Shown here: one piece after another, positions 775 to 7,105 of the stretch
Position numbering within the stretch: the stretch's first letter is position 1
Layout of the letters: each line of letters opens with the position of its first letter
DNA from: Vulcanimicrobiota bacterium
GTDB lineage: Bacteria > Vulcanimicrobiota > Vulcanimicrobiia > Vulcanimicrobiales > Vulcanimicrobiaceae
Direction: 5' to 3'
Length of the DNA: 64,000 nt
Assembly (NCBI GenBank): GCA_963795855.1
Contig: CAWCIZ010000003.1
Span: forward strand, 544,001-608,000
Translations under genes and position numbers: made by a program
The notes under the pieces: model-generated
Databases searched by the model: none
Seen by the model: only the letters and a program-made list of their open reading frames with translations
Told to the model about the DNA's origin: nothing

Positions 775-1916
775 TTACTCCGTTAACGGTTCGTAGACGC
801 GCCGCAGTTCCCCGGGTAAGCGCGTCACGATCTCGTAGTTAATCGTTTCCGCCCATTCGGCCCAATCGTCCGCACTCACCGCTTCCGCACCTTGCCTGCC
901 GATGAGCGTAACCGCGTCTCCGGGTTTGGCGTCGAGCGCGTTTTCGAGGTCGATCATCGTCATGTTCATGCAGACCCGGCCGACGATCGGGCAGCGGCGT
1001 CCGCCGACCAGAAACGCGGCGCGGTTCGAGAGCAGGCGCGGAATACCGTCGGCATAGCCGAGCGGTACGACGCCGATGCGCGTGCGCTTCGGGCGCATGG
1101 TAACTGCCGCCGTATCCGACCGGCGTGCCCGCCTCGACGGCACGCACTGCGGCGAGCGAGCTCTGCAGCGAAAGCGCGGGCTGCAAGTCGAATCGCGCGC
1201 CGTTCATTGCGATCCGGGTCTGCGGCGATGGCCATAAGCCGTACAGCGCAATCCCGATGCGCACCATGTCCAGGCGGGTTTGCGGCCACAGCATCGTCGC
1301 GGCCGACGCGGCGATGTGTTTGAGCGGGCGCGCGTTCTTTTGCGCGAGCGTTTCTTCAACGGAGTGCAGCGCGCGGTTGAATGCGTCGAGCTTGTCCGAG
1401 CGTGAACGGCGAATCGAGTTCTTCCGCTGCGGCCAAGTGCGAGAAGACGCCGGTGAGTGCGAGGTCCGGCAAACGCGCGTAATCTGAAACGGCATCCGCC
1501 GCTTCCGCGGGGTCGAGACCGAGGCGCGTGGTGCCGGTGTTGATCTTCACGTGCACCGGAACCGGAGCGCCGCGCCGCCGGCCCGACTCGGCAACCGCGC
1601 GCAGGTACGACCCGGTGTTCCACAACGCCAGTTCGACGTTGCGCGCGCATACTTCGTCCAGCTGCGCACTTTCGATCGGTCCCATGACGAAGATCGGACG
1701 CGTCACGCCGGCATCGCGCAATACCGCTGCTTCTTGGAGGGAGTACACGCACAAGCGCTCCGCATATGGTTCGACGGTTCGCGCAATTTCCACGATGCCG
1801 TGCCCGTAAGCGTTCGCTTTCACCACGAAGGCGGTTTTTGCGGGAGCCGCCAAATCGCGCAGCGCTCGCGCGTTGTGCGCGATCGCGGCTAAGGAAACGC
1901 AGATGCGCCCGATCAT
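775..1916 (-). CDS. alr: Alanine racemase (split over three frames; frameshifts near 1390 and 1100)
   Basis: VVKANAYGHG PLP-lysine motif, HVKINTG, GYGG, GYADG, GRVCMN and INYE motifs spread over ORFs 1356..1916, 839..1495 and 775..1143. Confidence 0.93.
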
Positions 1917-2620: not shown

Positions 2621-3547
2621 GTGCCCGGTCAGCAATTCGCGACCATCCTCGCGCGAACCGATCCGTTCGACGTCGCCCAGGGGGTGGAACGCCACATTCG
2701 CGCGTTGTCCGGCGAGCAGGTACGTCTGTTGATCGAGAACGCTCGGCCGCGCCTGAACGATTTTTACGAGGCGGAATTCGTTCCGCTGTTGGACGAGCGT
2801 AGCGATGCGCGTTTGAAAAGCGGCTTCGCGCAATCCCTCAAGAGTAATTTGCGCGCAATTCCGCTTTTCGGCCCGGCGTTTTGCCAGGGCGTTATCTCCG
2901 GCGTGCCGGCCGATCGCGCCATCGGCCTGGGTGAAGAGGAGCACCGCCTGCGGCCTGTGCGCCCCGTCGCGATCGCCGTTGTCGCCCTGGCGCTCGTCAT
3001 CGCGGGCGCAGCCGGGGAGCGGGTACTCAGCACAGCCAGATCCAACGCCCAGACGCCGGTCATCACCACGACGCCCGCGCCCTTGCAGTTGGAGACGCCG
3101 CGTCCGGTAGCTATCGCGACGGCCGCCGAAGAAACGCGTGCTCAGGCGACGTTGCCGCCGCGATCGCGTCTGCAAGCGTTGCAGACCGCCGTTCCGGTTA
3201 CGGCGCCGGCGTTGTTTTCCCCGACTCGACCGGCTGCGCCGGAAGCGCGCCCGCGGACCCCGGCGCCGGGAGCCGGCGTGAAAACGATCGTGGTAGGTCC
3301 TCCGACGAGCGCGCCCTCACCGCAGCCGAGCGACGTGGACGTGAGCGACATGCCGCAGGCATACACCGACGCGACGCCTTTGCCGAAAGAAACGGCGCCG
3401 CCGGCGCAAGCCGCCACGCCGCTAGGCGTCGTCACCCCTACTGCTTCTCCCAGGCGCCGCTCATGGTTGCATCGCACAATTATGCACTTGGACCCGTTCA
3501 AGCCTAATCCGCGCCCATCAACTTCCGCCCACGGACAGCCGCTATGA
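2621..3547 (+). CDS. Hypothetical membrane-anchored protein with Pro/Thr-rich C-terminal region
   Basis: 308-aa ORF with one TM segment (VAIAVVALALVIAGAAG); coupled to next gene by ATGA overlap. Confidence 0.65.
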   Translation: MPGQQFATILARTDPFDVAQGVERHIRALSGEQVRLLIENARPRLNDFYEAEFVPLLDERSDARLKSGFAQSLKSNLRAIPLFGPAFCQGVISGVPADRAIGLGEEEHRLRPVRPVAIAVVALALVIAGAAGERVLSTARSNAQTPVITTTPAPLQLETPRPVAIATAAEETRAQATLPPRSRLQALQTAVPVTAPALFSPTRPAAPEARPRTPAPGAGVKTIVVGPPTSAPSPQPSDVDVSDMPQAYTDATPLPKETAPPAQAATPLGVVTPTASPRRRSWLHRTIMHLDPFKPNPRPSTSAHGQPL

Positions 3548-4018
3548 AACTTTCGATCGTTGCGCCGCTTGCAGCCGCTGCCGCCCTGTCGCTGGCCGCA
3601 TGCAATTCCGGCAACAACCCCACCCCGACACCCACGCTTGGGCCTACGTGCCCACTGCCCGCCGGGGTTCAGACGCAGCTCGTGTATCCCGCGCCGGGCT
3701 CGACGGTGAGCGCCTCGACCGTGAGCGAAATCGCGATCGGGTCAACGGCCGCGCTCGATTCGAGCCGCTATCAGGTCGTCATCACGGACGCGCTCTTCCC
3801 ATATCCGAACTTCATCGCGCCCGGCGGCGCGCTGGCGGCGGCCTCACCGCCGTTCCCCTCGCCCAGCCAGACGCCGGCCTTCGGCAATCCGCAGTATCAG
3901 ACCACGACGCTCAGCAGCGTCTTTGCGGCAAACCAGGTCGTGACGGTCTACGTGAACGACACCAAATCGGGCGACAACTGCACACCGCTTCGAGCTGGGC
4001 GCGTTCACGACCCAGTAG
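3544..4018 (+). CDS. Putative lipoprotein (probable frameshift near 3988)
   Basis: Lipobox LSLAAC then NPTPTPT. After CTP an alternative frame gives FELGAFTTQ-TAG (4016-4018), a more plausible end than read-through into the IS to 4077. Confidence 0.6.
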
Positions 4019-4041
4019 CCGGCGAACAGCCTCCCCGGGGG

Positions 4042-4079
4042 CGTCCAAAGGGCATTATCCCCTCACGGCACGGGTAACC
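4042..4079. repeat. Target-site duplication copy 1 plus terminal inverted repeat
   Basis: CGTCCAAA followed by GGGCATTATCCC...GTAACC. Confidence 0.93.
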
Positions 4080-4276
4080 GAAATCTCGAAAATGCGCTAG
4101 TGTTATCAGATCAGAGCCTTAATCTTTTCGTTCATGTTCGCGGGGCATAAACAAAGCGTGAAGTTTCGGCTTTTACCAAACCGTGACCGTTGACATTACG
4201 CCCTAAAGCCGGATGATTAGATTCCGACGTATAGCATGGATGCCAAGGATGGCCCACTGGTAGTCTGGAGAGCAGC

Positions 4277-4471
4277 ATGGAGAATTGCCTTGTGTGTGGC
4301 AAGCCAGTTCGAGTCGAGTACCCTGGGTTGCCGCGCGCCCGTGCGCTTTGTGATGATGTTTGCAAGCGAATCTGGGCTGCTCAAACCGGCAAAGAATACA
4401 TCAGTATGCAAGAATACGCCAGCAGGGTGAACGCGGCGACGAAACCTATCCACCCTACTAGCGCGTCGTAA
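4277..4471 (+). CDS. Small Cys-rich (CxxC...CxxxC) putative zinc-binding passenger protein
   Basis: MENCLVCGKP...LCDDVCK; GGAGAG RBS upstream; TTGACA at 4190-4195 with a candidate -10 GATGAT at 4212-4217. Confidence 0.55.
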   Translation: MENCLVCGKPVRVEYPGLPRARALCDDVCKRIWAAQTGKEYISMQEYASRVNAATKPIHPTSAS

Positions 4472-4494
4472 GTCTACCTTAGCGGGTTATCGAT

Positions 4495-4764
4495 TTAGTA
4501 AACAGGCAGACTTAGCAGATTGTCAGCAACGGAATCATTCGGTAGTGTCCGTATGTACGGACGCCGGATGGTCCCGCAAACGACGACTACACGAGTCCGG
4601 CGATCGCCGTCCACCGTGTAGAGTTCGTTTCCGCCGTTGATAAACGCGATGATGGCCGATAGAGTCATCGTTAGCGTTACGCCGAAGACGGTTCGACATT
4701 CCACGTCGGTGATTATGGAGTGGGGACCCTCTAGGTACACTCCTATTGCTTCCAGAGATTGCAT
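4495..4764 (-). CDS. DUF3892-like passenger protein (89 aa)
   Basis: AAGGAGG RBS (4780-4774) before ATG 4764; C-terminal PYIRTLPNDSVADNLLSLP resembles the DUF3892 signature. Confidence 0.7.
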   Translation of the reverse strand: MQSLEAIGVYLEGPHSIITDVECRTVFGVTLTMTLSAIIAFINGGNELYTVDGDRRTRVVVVCGTIRRPYIRTLPNDSVADNLLSLPVY

Positions 4765-4795
4765 TGAGCAAGACCTCCTTGTGACGTGTCGCACC

Positions 4796-4919
4796 CGGCG
4801 CTTGGGATGCGGGCGGAGTGCCCGCGCCAAGTCACCAGCGTTCCCACCGAGGCAGGAGCGCTGTCGGGGTACCGGCTTCCCCCGATTTGCCGTCCGCTGA
4901 AGCACTCATCACCTGCGGA
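4796..4919. ncRNA. Structured non-coding segment (multi-hairpin junction)
   Basis: CGGCG/TGCCG closes three hairpins (CTTGG..GCGGGC/GCCCGC..CCAAG; CAGCGTTCC/GGAGCGCTG; TCGGGG/CCCCGA), followed by TCCGC/GCGGA. Confidence 0.45.
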
Positions 4920-5000
4920 AATCTCATAGTACCTCTGGACTGGTGCGGTCGGTAGCCCATTCTCCGAAGCCTTAGCTTTCGCTAAACGAAGCGGGCCCTT

Positions 5001-5029
5001 TTGCGTCACCGTCCGGTTCGTGATAATGT
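5001..5029 (+). promoter_or_regulatory. Putative sigma70 promoter for cloverleaf RNA A
   Basis: TTGCGT (5001-5006), 17 bp, TAATGT (5024-5029) with TG extension; predicted start about 5036. Confidence 0.5.
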
Positions 5030-5035
5030 TGGAGC

Positions 5036-5127
5036 GGAGCCGGGGAATCTTATTTCATGCGCGGTACCAGCGCGCACCCATGGTTTCTAAGGCCAGGTCG
5101 GACACTTGTCACGATTCGGCGGCTCCA
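5036..5127 (+). ncRNA. Cloverleaf/tRNA-like small RNA A (non-canonical)
   Basis: Perfect 7-bp GGAGCCG/CGGCTCC plus unpaired A; inner GAATC/GATTC; arms TGCGCG-7nt-CGCGCA, TGGT-TTCTAAG-GCCA and GAC-ACTT-GTC. Confidence 0.55.
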
Positions 5128-5136
5128 AAATGAATC

Positions 5137-5167
5137 GGGCTCATCTTTTAAGATGGGCCTGTTCTTT
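5137..5167 (+). terminator. Intrinsic terminator-like hairpin after RNA A
   Basis: GGGCTCATCT-TTTA-AGATGGGCCT then GTTCTTT; its G-U pairs are valid only on the + strand. Confidence 0.55.
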
Positions 5168-5194
5168 ACGCGGCATTCTCCGTTTCGGTTGCGG

Positions 5195-5626
5195 CTATTG
5201 TGGCGGGCGGAACGTCGCCGATCCACCGATACGTTCGAGGGGCAATTTTTTGACCATGTGGCGTTGGGAGAGGTTGTAGCACGAGACATCAGTCGCTGAA
5301 AGCGGACTGTCAGCCCGCGTTACTGCGTTCATTGCCTGAGCGCGCTTCCATAATTCCTTTACGTGCATCGGGGTGCCGTGCGCTTCGTACAGAATGCGCG
5401 CGATGGCGCTCATTAATGAAGGCCCGCCCTTCGACCGTGGCGGAACGACATTCGGCGGTTCGATGCCTAACGGTAGCGGCTCGCCATTACTTGCATTCAG
5501 CGTGAGCCAGCGTTCGTCGGCGCGTAGCATGTCGAGCAGTACTTCTCTCTGCCTATCAAGGTTGGCGAGCGTTTCTCGAACTTGTGCTAGCCGATCGCGG
5601 ACTGCTTGCTCGGTTAACATGGTCAT
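5195..5626 (-). CDS. Passenger protein: N-terminal coiled coil plus C-terminal winged-helix-like DNA-binding domain
   Basis: 143 aa; heptad-like VRDRLAQVRETLANLDRQREVL; SLMSAIARILYEAHGTPMHVKELWKRA wHTH-like; AAGGGA RBS. Confidence 0.65.
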   Translation of the reverse strand: MTMLTEQAVRDRLAQVRETLANLDRQREVLLDMLRADERWLTLNASNGEPLPLGIEPPNVVPPRSKGGPSLMSAIARILYEAHGTPMHVKELWKRAQAMNAVTRADSPLSATDVSCYNLSQRHMVKKLPLERIGGSATFRPPQ

Positions 5627-5648
5627 TTCGGTTCCCTTTTGCTATAAT
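5620..5648 (+). promoter_or_regulatory. Putative sigma70 promoter for cloverleaf RNA B
   Basis: TGGTCA (5620-5625), 17 bp, perfect TATAAT (5643-5648) with TG extension; predicted start about 5655. Confidence 0.65.
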
Positions 5649-5653
5649 GGCAA

Positions 5654-5722
5654 TGGCGACGCCGGGGCCTCGATCCCCGGAGTTACGGGATTTCAGTCCC
5701 GCTTCTGTCCGAACCGCCGCCA
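5654..5722. ncRNA. Cloverleaf/tRNA-like small RNA B (non-canonical; strand ambiguous)
   Basis: Minus strand: GGCGGCG G TTC-GGACA-GAA GCGGGA-CTGAAA-TCCCGT AACT CCGGGG-ATCGAGG-CCCCGG CGTCGCC A. The promoter and terminator signals are on the + strand. Confidence 0.55.
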
Positions 5723-5724
5723 TC

Positions 5725-5770
5725 GGGGGCCCTGGGTCTGTCACCAAACTTCCCCAGGCCCCCTTACTTT
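5725..5770 (+). terminator. Terminator-like hairpin after RNA B
   Basis: GGGGG(C)CCTGGG, 16-nt loop, CCCAGGCCCCC, followed by TTACTTT. Confidence 0.5.
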
Positions 5771-5935
5771 ATCATAACGAGTCTGCTCGCATCATAGGGG
5801 GTAGGCCCTATGTAGGACCTAATAGCTCCATAAAGTTTAGGTAAAAGAGGCGTATGGACAAAACTAAGGGCGTGGCACCATCCGGCGAACGCCCATATGA
5901 ACGGGTTGACTTTCTACGCGACTTGTCTAAGGCGT

Positions 5936-6943
5936 CTAAGAAACTAGCTTCCGGGGATGATGCTTCGCTGGAAAGTGACGCGCAAGAAACTCCTGGGAAA
6001 TCTGACCGCAAAGAATCGTGAACATCGGCTTGCCATCCTCGCGATGGTTGTAGCGGAAGCAATACTCGTCTAAGTAACCCTGAATGTGCTTGCGCGAGAT
6101 ATGCTTGTACACGCCGCGCACACTGCCACGGAAATGCGACCAGAAGCCCTCGATCGTGTTCGTCGAAACGCCGTCCGCATCGACGTAAACGCCGTCACTG
6201 TGCTTCACTAGTCTGTGAACGTAACCCCAATGCTTGAGGGGAACGTATTGCGGGGCTTCGTCTGTATGAATTTCACTACCGGGCTTGACTCGCTGCTTGA
6301 TGGGCTGCGTCAACTCGAAGAATCCGCGCCGTTCTACGGGATAAGCCGCAATACGGCCACCACGCTCGACTAAACCCGCGATTACGATCTTGCCGGTTTC
6401 GGGCCCAACAACTTGCGGAAAACGCGCACGAGCCCGACGGTTCATGCGATTAACCTTCGGCCCGAAATACGTTTCATCGGCTTCTACTATCTTGTCGCCG
6501 CCGAGATCGTGAACGTCCTCTAGTAGCATCTTGCGAATGAGGTTGAACATGCGCCACGCAGTTTTATACGTAACGCCGGTTTCGCGCATGAGCTGCATGG
6601 CGGAAATGCCACAACGGGTCGCGCTCATCAAGTAGATCGCGTGGAACCACGTTTTGAGGCTTGTCTTGGACTTGTGGAAGATCGTGCCGGCCGTCGGATG
6701 CGTATGCGTTCCGCAGTAATCGCAGGTCCAGACCTTGGGGCGATTCTTGAGCTGGTGATGGGGGCGGACCTCGCCGCATTGCAAACAGTGGATATACAGT
6801 GCGTCCGCGTCCTCGGGGGCCCATAGCGGCTGCGGATAGAGAGACTTGACCAACCAGCGCATACACGCGATATCGTCCGGAAACTCGGATTCGAACTGCT
6901 TGAACGTGTACTTGCTGTTCTTGGGTAGGTTTAGGCTCGGCAT
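5936..6943 (-). CDS. IS1595-family DDE transposase
   Basis: N-terminal Zn ribbon (CLQC...WTCDYC), TIFHKSK, VEADETYFG, IHTDEAPQY, TNTIEGFWS, YLDEYCFRYN; GGAGG RBS before ATG 6943. Confidence 0.96.
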   Translation of the reverse strand: MPSLNLPKNSKYTFKQFESEFPDDIACMRWLVKSLYPQPLWAPEDADALYIHCLQCGEVRPHHQLKNRPKVWTCDYCGTHTHPTAGTIFHKSKTSLKTWFHAIYLMSATRCGISAMQLMRETGVTYKTAWRMFNLIRKMLLEDVHDLGGDKIVEADETYFGPKVNRMNRRARARFPQVVGPETGKIVIAGLVERGGRIAAYPVERRGFFELTQPIKQRVKPGSEIHTDEAPQYVPLKHWGYVHRLVKHSDGVYVDADGVSTNTIEGFWSHFRGSVRGVYKHISRKHIQGYLDEYCFRYNHREDGKPMFTILCGQISQEFLARHFPAKHHPRKLVS

Positions 6944-6973
6944 AGGGCTCGCCTCCACCTACAGCGTATCATG

Positions 6974-7011
6974 GGTTACACGTGCGGTCAAGGGATAATG
7001 ACCCGTCCAAA
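6974..7011. repeat. Terminal inverted repeat plus target-site duplication copy 2
   Basis: GGTTACACGTGCGGTCAAGGGATAATGACC followed by CGTCCAAA. Confidence 0.93.
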
Positions 7012-7015
7012 GAAC

Positions 7016-7044
7016 TTGCAGTCTCCACCGGAGTCTGCTAAGAT
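7016..7044 (+). promoter_or_regulatory. groESL sigma70 promoter
   Basis: TTGCAG, 17 bp, TAAGAT with TG extension. Confidence 0.75.
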
Positions 7045-7051
7045 TCCATCG

Positions 7052-7078
7052 CTGGCACTCTATTGCTGAGAGTGCCAA
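7052..7078. promoter_or_regulatory. CIRCE operator (HrcA site)
   Basis: CTGGCACTC-N9-GAGTGCCAA vs consensus TTAGCACTC-N9-GAGTGCTAA, upstream of groES. Confidence 0.92.
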
Positions 7079-7105
7079 TCCCTGACAAATTTTTTGGAGG
7101 TTTAC

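Follow-up and report, generated by a model that had tools for sequence, protein, structure and literature searches.

The window analysed here, a 64,000-nucleotide stretch of a Vulcanimicrobiota contig, carries near its start a 2,954-bp transposon of the IS1595 family (positions 4050–7003). The element has a transposase of the DDE_Tnp_IS1595 type (minus strand, 5936–6958; 340 amino acids; PF12762, E 1.8e-32), terminal inverted repeats of 30 nt (4050–4079 and 6974–7003, 83% complementary) and flanking 8-bp target-site duplications that are identical (4042–4049 and 7004–7011), and related elements share its ends and mostly have matching 8-bp duplications. On its minus strand the order is transposase, a small irregular tRNA-like gene (RNA B), an open reading frame (ORF) with coiled-coil and HARE-HTH regions, a second tRNA-shaped RNA (RNA A) and a DUF3892 ORF. 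The earlier note on this DNA had described RNA A as a self-contained gene; it is transposon cargo instead. The HARE-HTH ORF (5195–5626, 143 amino acids) matches PF05066 with an E-value of 7.6e-4, under the cut-off, and has a homolog in the locus L176 (tblastn E 2e-5), itself matching PF05066 with an E-value of 1.5e-7; a protein search with the ORF returned no match beyond itself and viral contigs held no relative of the HTH alignment. The DUF3892 ORF (4495–4764) encodes 89 amino acids from an ATG behind AAGGAGG, the match to PF13031 (E 1.1e-6) being to the longer frame, whereas a cysteine-containing ORF of 64 amino acids on the plus strand (4277–4471) shows sub-threshold Pfam zinc-ribbon matches only (E ~0.04) and is uncertain cargo. 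Between RNA A and the DUF3892 ORF, the minus strand at 4765–4960 is a strongly folding non-coding stretch with several hairpins, which may be another cargo RNA. The G+C content of the element is about 0.54–0.59, compared with 0.62 for the genome, in which RNA A occurs as a single copy. The element interrupts the 3' end of a lipoprotein-like ORF (3544–4077 and 7004–7094) just upstream of groES-groEL, so the insertion is possibly recent. Elsewhere in the window, an alanine racemase-like gene (775–1916, minus strand) is apparently split across more than one frame, through a frameshift or an assembly error.

The earlier note had read RNA A on the plus strand, as a three-armed cloverleaf with an amber-complementary loop, and most of the letters it cited are in place. 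The hexamers TTGCGT (5001–5006) and TAATGT (5024–5029) are separated by 17 nt as described. As a promoter they hold up in part: the extended −10 form (TGnTAnnnT, 5021–5029) is kept in homologs, but the overall consensus is weak and unlisted by the promoter scanner, and the −35 hexamer, with three of six consensus positions, is not conserved in them. The 7-bp closing stem (5036–5042 with 5120–5126, followed by A) exists as well, but it is not distinctive, such perfect stems occurring at 4.3 per kb of the window. The central loop TTCTAAG lies at 5085–5091, and the hairpin at 5136–5161, with G-U pairs that work on the plus strand and a U tract reaching 5167, is listed by the terminator scanner. 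TTCRA and an encoded CCA are both absent from the plus strand. Neither ARAGORN nor Rfam (run at gathering thresholds for the window and up to E 10 for the element and the homologous locus L283) gave a relevant match to RNA A, in line with the weak or missing match that had been expected; the Rfam tRNA models did not match it, and the C4 families matched neither the window element nor L283 at E-values of up to 10. The features of a canonical or amber-suppressor tRNA (a 7/5 cloverleaf, TTCRA, an ARAGORN or RF00005 call) were likewise not found on the plus strand. Positions 5030–5135 of that strand fold better than shuffled sequences (z −3.7; 0 of 200 shuffles), and 5030–5170 more so (z −5.3). 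In the single sequence, the three-arm fold lies 6.2 kcal/mol above the minimum (−33.1 against −39.3) and the CUA arm has a pairing probability of about 0.25. Because the proposed fold is suboptimal, its CUA arm so rarely paired and 7-bp stems so common, the single sequence was unable to decide the structure.

Homologs were more informative. A one-sequence covariance model gave three clear copies of RNA A in 150 genomes of the family, and a pattern for the conserved half gave nine matches in metagenomes, of which two were new copies, one equalled L217 over the stretch compared and six (L225, L226, L227, L229, L230 and L233) were dropped as chance. A five-sequence model added L283, so that seven distinct copies are known in all. 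The six outside the window (L217, L218, L219, L228, L232 and L283) all lie beside IS1-family ends or a transposase: an IS1-type transposase is found near L217, L218, L219 and L283, and L228 and L232 have the same terminal repeat and small basic gene as the IS1 copies. The pattern found four copies in 401 genomes of the phylum, missing that in genome G207 through a one-base variant, and a minus-strand model (R3, below) revealed no further copy in 141 genomes of the phylum. No match was obtained by BLAST of RNA A against 60 relatives, nothing significant by BLAST and nhmmer on IS1595 loci, and none in phages; viral contigs gave 53 matches to a 15-mer, none of them homologous, and no match to the conserved-half pattern, and 28 short matches in plasmids were judged chance. 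Weak model matches at L220, L300, L167 (4313–4381) and L002 (9898–10033) were dropped.

Across the seven copies, 8 of 30 pairs change on both sides and 98.6% of cells pair. The covariation score was reached by none of 500 shuffles and slid controls gave 0.03–0.05, although kinship can beat a shuffle control; since the copies are near relatives of one another (87% mean column identity for six of the seven), counts over them are not independent. Four arms, not three, stand inside the closing stem, making five stems that covary or are invariant; the fourth (5044–5056) had been left unpaired in the earlier reading, and in four of its five pairs both partners differ between copies. All seven copies keep the closing stem unchanged and the central arm covaries, which bears out the idea of a conserved, non-canonical, tRNA-shaped RNA. 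Of the homologous stem and loop that were expected to persist, the stem does so throughout and the loop in part: on the plus strand it reads UUCUAAG in five copies, UUCUAAA in one and UGUUAAG in L232, so that CUA is kept in six of seven and L232 has lost the plus-strand U33. The base after the closing stem on this strand also varies (A in five copies, C and G in the others). The first 31 nt on the minus strand are nearly invariant, without covariation, which a tRNA fold alone leaves unexplained. When the five distant relatives are included, in an alignment fitted to the model, 20 of 28 pairs change on both sides.

The homologs also indicate which strand carries the tRNA. A model built from five plus-strand copies only (R2) was run on host tRNAs; 16 were given, 15 had a match, and 14 of these scored higher antisense than sense. 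The five best were tRNA-Sec (26.1 bits antisense, 5.9 sense) and four tRNA-Ser (24.8/10.4, 22.6/6.5, 17.3/5.9 and 16.3/11.4), and R2 also matched the reverse complement of a tRNA-Ser and a tRNA-Sec. In other phyla it had matches in 2 of 5, 4 of 151 and 3 of 151 genomes, representing eight distinct loci. All eight were antisense: three to tRNA-Sec, three to tRNA-Ser and two to 8/4 allo-type RNAs (L301 and L321), for which the strand was set from layout and G-U pairs, ARAGORN calling neither. The reverse model R3, comprising the minus strand of the seven copies together with L301 and L321, gave its highest score to the sense strand for all 16 host tRNAs. On the minus strand, the discriminator G73 (5035) is invariant in all seven copies. 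Host tRNA-Sec and tRNA-Ser are thus the nearest host tRNAs for both models in the minus-strand reading; they score 19–33 bits compared with 96–110 for family members, and RNA A differs from them in having neither a UCA nor a serine anticodon, and no TTCRA. We conclude that RNA A very probably descends from an 8/4 serine-type tRNA encoded on the minus strand. The tRNA layout being on that strand, the loop reads CU-UAG-AA, a leucine-type reading that the earlier note had mentioned and then set aside; "CUA" is the complement of the leucine anticodon UAG, and the amber reading is a strand artefact. A plus-strand T arm drawn from the 3' half, with pairs possible in all copies but invariant, was set aside.

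In tRNA orientation, RNA A spans 5126 down to 5035 and folds like an 8/4 allo-tRNA. The acceptor stem (5120–5126 with 5036–5042) starts with GGAG and has seven pairs, an eighth G-C pair forming only across a 2-nt bulge. The D arm (5098–5114) has six pairs with one bulge, closed by a loop of 4 nt in six copies and 5 nt in L219. The anticodon arm (5078–5097) is the covarying central arm; its 7-nt loop (5085–5091) has Y32 and U33 in all seven copies and a non-serine anticodon, UAG in six and UAA in one, with C at position 37 in L232. A long variable arm of six covarying base pairs (5058–5076) precedes a T arm (5044–5056) with a 4-bp stem. The T loop is not of the tRNA type: it reads UGCAAGA-like in four copies and AUCGUGU in two, and is 5 nt long, two bases short, in the window copy. 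Owing to the fixed bulges in the acceptor and D stems, a T loop that is not TTCRA and varies between copies, and the lack of CCA, aminoacylation is doubtful. The window copy, which also has an A.C mismatch on the minus strand, may be partly decayed on its tRNA side, having lost two T-loop bases and a downstream mini-ORF that is described below.

These features recall the 8/4 allo-tRNAs and irregular-tRNA polycistrons reported by Mukai et al. in 2017 (PMC5389517; reviewed in PMC7609411). As far as those RNAs are described in the text of that paper, RNA A shares with them the GGAG start, long D stem with tetraloop, long variable arm, 4-bp T stem, G73 and non-serine anticodon, as well as an occurrence in soil bacteria and a link to transposons and toxin-antitoxin loci. 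It differs from the allo-tRNAs of that text in the fixed 2-nt acceptor bulge, the D-stem bulge and the T loop UGCAAGA or AUCGUGU, although junction variants drawn in Figures 4, S5 and S6 of PMC5389517 could resemble the RNA A fold. A word search of its supplement found neither TTAGAA nor RNA A D-arm words, and in none of the four rows holding TGCAAG does this form the T loop. The available text describes neither a conserved antisense promoter nor a mini-ORF behind a Shine-Dalgarno (SD) sequence. According to it, allo-tRNAs with serine identity and leucine anticodon were lethal in E. coli, and destabilised ones did not translate, though two engineered variants were lethal; the role of non-translating, transposon-linked allo-tRNAs is left open there, a toxin-antitoxin link being only suggested (PMC5389517).

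On the opposite strand, the extended −10 (5021–5029) lies 5 nt from the 3' end of the tRNA-like unit. The motif is present in all seven copies, at a distance of 110–126 nt in five homologs and of about 155 nt in L232; for comparison, the host genome has 0.025–0.15 such sites per kb, and 3 of its 48 tRNAs have one. A plus-strand transcript starting near 5036, as the earlier note had proposed, is therefore plausible at motif level. Beyond the 5' end of RNA A, hairpins of unrelated sequence occupy the same place in the homologs as the terminator does here (5136–5167), with a clear U tract in four of seven copies; these flanking signals are kept while the flanking sequence diverges. From the extended −10 in every copy and the terminator in the window we predict a full-length antisense RNA (5036–5167) covering the whole tRNA-like gene, and thus, as far as motifs go, the arrangement of a type I antisense RNA, whose promoter and terminator enclose the partner gene. 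A short anti-anticodon segment close to copies of RNA A was considered and rejected as unconserved.

On the minus strand, the six copies outside the window have a near-perfect SD sequence after the 3' end of RNA A, followed by a mini-ORF of about 28 codons with an R-W-R-G-E-P-K-like product and no stop before a hairpin; L232 has the same mini-ORF. In all five copies compared, the codon 8–9 nt behind the SD sequence shares its frame with conserved E-P/S-K codons, although the spacings differ. The start position holds GTG or TTG in four of the five, and the frame stays open to the hairpin in all five, whereas 7 of 10 other frames stop early. Judged by eye, this hairpin carries a UUCG or GAAA loop, or else G-U pairs that form on the minus strand. 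The region is a possible programmed non-stop mRNA or CreT-like RNA. CreT RNA toxins (PMC10097628; PMC8501985) have a strong SD sequence, a start codon, a mini-ORF with dispensable stop and a hairpin, and are toxic as RNA (PMC10097628). As far as CreT is described there, the IS1-borne copies of RNA A resemble it in SD sequence, start codon, mini-ORF and hairpin; they differ in that the mini-ORF follows a tRNA-like unit, that the predicted control is a cis-antisense RNA and that the mini-ORFs share no rare-codon pair. The ORF lists for the neighbourhood of the copies show no evident CRISPR-Cas genes. The CreT-like parts are present in the six other copies, one of which has GTT at the start position, and absent in the window copy. 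In the host genome, which is 86% complete, ARAGORN called 48 tRNAs and no tmRNA, an observation of relevance if the non-stop mini-ORF is real. A promoter for RNA A on the minus strand was not found, and a transcript would need to pass a hairpin; a promoter within the invariant half was set aside, as its −10 would miss the final T.

Irregular tRNAs are frequent in elements of this kind. Among the five closest IS1595 relatives, three (L002, L003 and L167) have one inside the element, none was called in L165, and L166 ends at a contig edge. Mismatches between anticodon and tRNA body, such as GCC or UGC on a body of leucine type, occur in IS1595 loci at L002 (4699–4771), L003 (3514–3595), L167 (1597–1671), L009 (5524–5685), L056 (8366–8440) and L181 (7198–7284). 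Of 32 IS1 loci picked by transposase alone, 13 have an irregular tRNA with leucine anticodon or RNA A: ten carry a serine-body tRNA with UAG, two one with UAA, of which one is possibly a host gene, and one carries RNA A. RNA A and a UAG tRNA never occur together (0 of 35 IS1 loci). In the IS1 clade, the serine-body tRNA sits opposite the strand of the small basic gene, and an antisense extended −10 is found at none of 11 such tRNAs. Serine-body tRNAs with fixed UAG are present in IS1-family elements of Eremiobacterota (L271 at 2550–2643, L272, L273, L280, L281, L282, L288, L291, L295 and L297); their positions 32–33 vary (CU, CC, GU, CG, UU), and L278 has UAA. From their sequence, the IS1-borne serine-body UAG tRNAs are candidate serine-for-leucine mistranslators. 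Codon usage was examined as well. CTA accounts for 15 of 39 CTN codons in the three minus-strand ORFs of the window element (4495–6958), compared with 0 of 42 in groEL; the enrichment, measured post hoc against 31 of 251 for other A-ending codons (p 1.8e-4), did not recur in the IS1 set and was rejected. In IS1 transposases with and without a leucine-anticodon RNA, CTA use was 0.140 and 0.143 (p 0.89).

More distant relatives have the unbulged 8/4 branch (L301, L321, L330 and L331). In 141 Chloroflexota genomes, R3 found three ARAGORN-called tRNAs with an 8/4 branch: L330 (1319–1409, UGG), L331 (UAG) and L332 (GAU). In L331 the loop is CU-UAG-AC, a C31.A39 mismatch recalls that of RNA A, the T stem is GCGG/CCGC as in three copies of RNA A, the discriminator is G73, and CCA is encoded. 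L330 adjoins a transposase-like and a DNA methyltransferase-like ORF. The 8/4 allo-type RNAs with GAU anticodon in two Dehalococcoidia-class genomes (L301, 1503–1700; L321, reverse strand, 1501–1586 and downstream) lie, in both, between genes that we take to be ahcY and metK. ARAGORN misses both, and Rfam tRNA models do not match that of L301. Each is followed by a predicted promoter, an RNA of about 55 nt and a terminator. Complementarity between the small RNA and the anticodon arm extends over 14 nt in L301 and 13 nt in L321, and both partners change together. Placed between ahcY and metK, the arrangement could also be cis-regulatory.

RNA A is a real, conserved and mobile RNA element, an allo-tRNA-like cargo variant with a predicted antisense partner. 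As to its function, we propose with moderate confidence that the minus strand encodes a harmful RNA derived from an 8/4 allo-tRNA with a leucine anticodon, which is restrained by the full-length plus-strand antisense RNA in the style of an RNA-only toxin-antitoxin system. In this hypothetical scenario, (i) the minus-strand RNA would be transcribed together with the upstream cargo genes, as suggested by the missing promoter of its own; (ii) it would be trimmed by tRNA-processing nucleases; (iii) the damage would be done by a tRNA of serine identity that reads leucine codons, as with the allo-tRNAs of Mukai et al. in E. coli (in the text of PMC5389517), and/or by the strong SD mini-ORF joined to it in the IS1 copies, acting in a CreT-like manner; (iv) the plus-strand transcript would neutralise the minus-strand RNA by pairing over its whole length. 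A broader version is more tentative, and we consider it possible rather than probable: insertion sequences of soil bacteria would carry an RNA-only addiction module with a tRNA-shaped toxin (serine identity, leucine anticodon, mostly fused to a ribosome-trapping, non-stop SD mini-ORF), whose antitoxin would be an antisense RNA covering the toxin from end to end or, in the relatives, a small RNA against the anticodon arm, the whole forming a cassette exchangeable between IS1 and IS1595 elements.

Among type I toxin-antitoxin pairs, those of the Ibs/Sib type have an antisense RNA that overlaps its partner completely. RNA A resembles them in that two opposite transcripts are predicted which overlap in full, with a separate hairpin at the end of each. 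It differs in that the mini-ORF peptides are basic, not hydrophobic, and that the candidate toxin is the tRNA-shaped RNA.

It is also conceivable, though we regard it as unlikely, that function resides in the plus-strand RNA, which would have begun as the antisense copy of an ancient allo-tRNA and turned into a structured RNA in its own right, acting as a decoy or as a C4-like regulator in the way that the earlier note had proposed. Besides the promoter motif in all seven copies and the plus-strand G-U pairs of the terminator, this reading has in its favour that four of five core G-U events favour the plus strand (the T arm in the window, the T-arm closing pair of L218, L232 and the invariant closing pair of the central loop), one favouring the minus strand (L219/L228), and that its 3' half is near-invariant. 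In two copies the two strands fold with the same energy, and in two more, including the window copy (−39.3 compared with −34.7 on the minus strand), the plus strand folds better. However, the tRNA arm order and sequence match exist on the minus strand only, the loss of U33 in L232 and the varying base after the stem affect the plus strand, and the SD mini-ORF points to a minus-strand transcript. No same-strand target site of at least 8 nt was found near RNA A at any of the seven copies, and C4-type targets complementary to the central loop within 400 nt reach 7 nt at best in the window and 6 nt in L218, with none of at least 6 nt in the five others. The analogy to phage P1 C4 or P4 CI RNA drawn in the earlier note is unsupported, for want of an Rfam C4 match and of a conserved target site. 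As far as C4 of phages P1 and P7 is described in PMC5320573, RNA A shares with this antisense RNA a small closed-stem form, a GGA start and a mobile element, but C4 has three stem-loops with target sites in its a' and b' loops, whereas RNA A has five stems.

A harmless minus-strand unit appears similarly improbable to us. It could be a signal for processing of the cargo transcript by RNase P/Z or E, or a decoy for an anticodon nuclease or a synthetase, with an antisense RNA that merely tunes the cargo. The fixed bulges and non-standard T loop speak against use in translation, RNA A sits between cargo genes of the same strand and occurs with and without the mini-ORF, and these elements commonly carry irregular tRNAs whose anticodons are of many kinds. 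Against this, processing alone would not require a leucine anticodon in seven of seven copies or a conserved antisense promoter, and no nuclease gene is seen in the element by Pfam. A third reading, in which RNA A is a decayed tRNA relic and a passive passenger of the transposon, is very unlikely: it would fit the shortened T loop, the A.C mismatch and the missing mini-ORF of the window copy, its single occurrence in the genome and the failure of BLAST in 60 relatives, but for the family as a whole it is already largely refuted by compensatory changes in three arms and invariant bulges across seven copies in two IS families, and by flanking signals kept despite diverging flanks. An amber-suppressor or pyrrolysine-type tRNA on the plus strand, suggested by UU-CUA-AG or UU-CUA-AA in six of seven copies, is scarcely credible: the four arms of that strand do not follow the order of a tRNA, the acceptor lacks a stacked T arm, L232 has UUA with G33, and the tRNA fit belongs to the other strand.

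For the toxin-antitoxin link suggested by Mukai et al., the family offers testable parts, namely a tRNA-like unit, a conserved antisense promoter and a conserved mini-ORF, to which the two Dehalococcoidia-class relatives add an anticodon arm and a complementary small RNA that change in step. A search of the literature outside subscription journals found no paper on a module of this type. The family escapes ARAGORN and Rfam, and it sets a trap for genome readers, as a leucine UAG anticodon mimics an amber CUA when seen from the opposite strand.

The second irregular tRNA-like gene of the element, RNA B (5654–5721, minus strand), was found with relaxed ARAGORN settings and has a GAA triplet in a 6-nt loop and a 6-bp T stem. 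It folds better on the minus than on the plus strand (−38.5 compared with −28.7). Antisense to it, an extended −10, TGCTATAAT (5640–5648, plus strand), lies 5 nt from its 3' end, and beyond the gene a plus-strand hairpin with a U-rich tail (5725–5770), identified from sequence and fold and unlisted by the scanner, is the likely terminator of an RNA B antisense RNA. An RNA B-like RNA, read by eye, precedes the HTH homolog in L176, and both RNAs have an antisense extended −10, as does RNA A. The cassette of RNA B and HARE-HTH gene (window 5640–5770; L176 7630–7810) thus recurs in an unrelated IS1595 element; in L176 it adjoins a SocA/Panacea antitoxin gene and an unnamed partner, and both RNAs have the GAA triplet loop.
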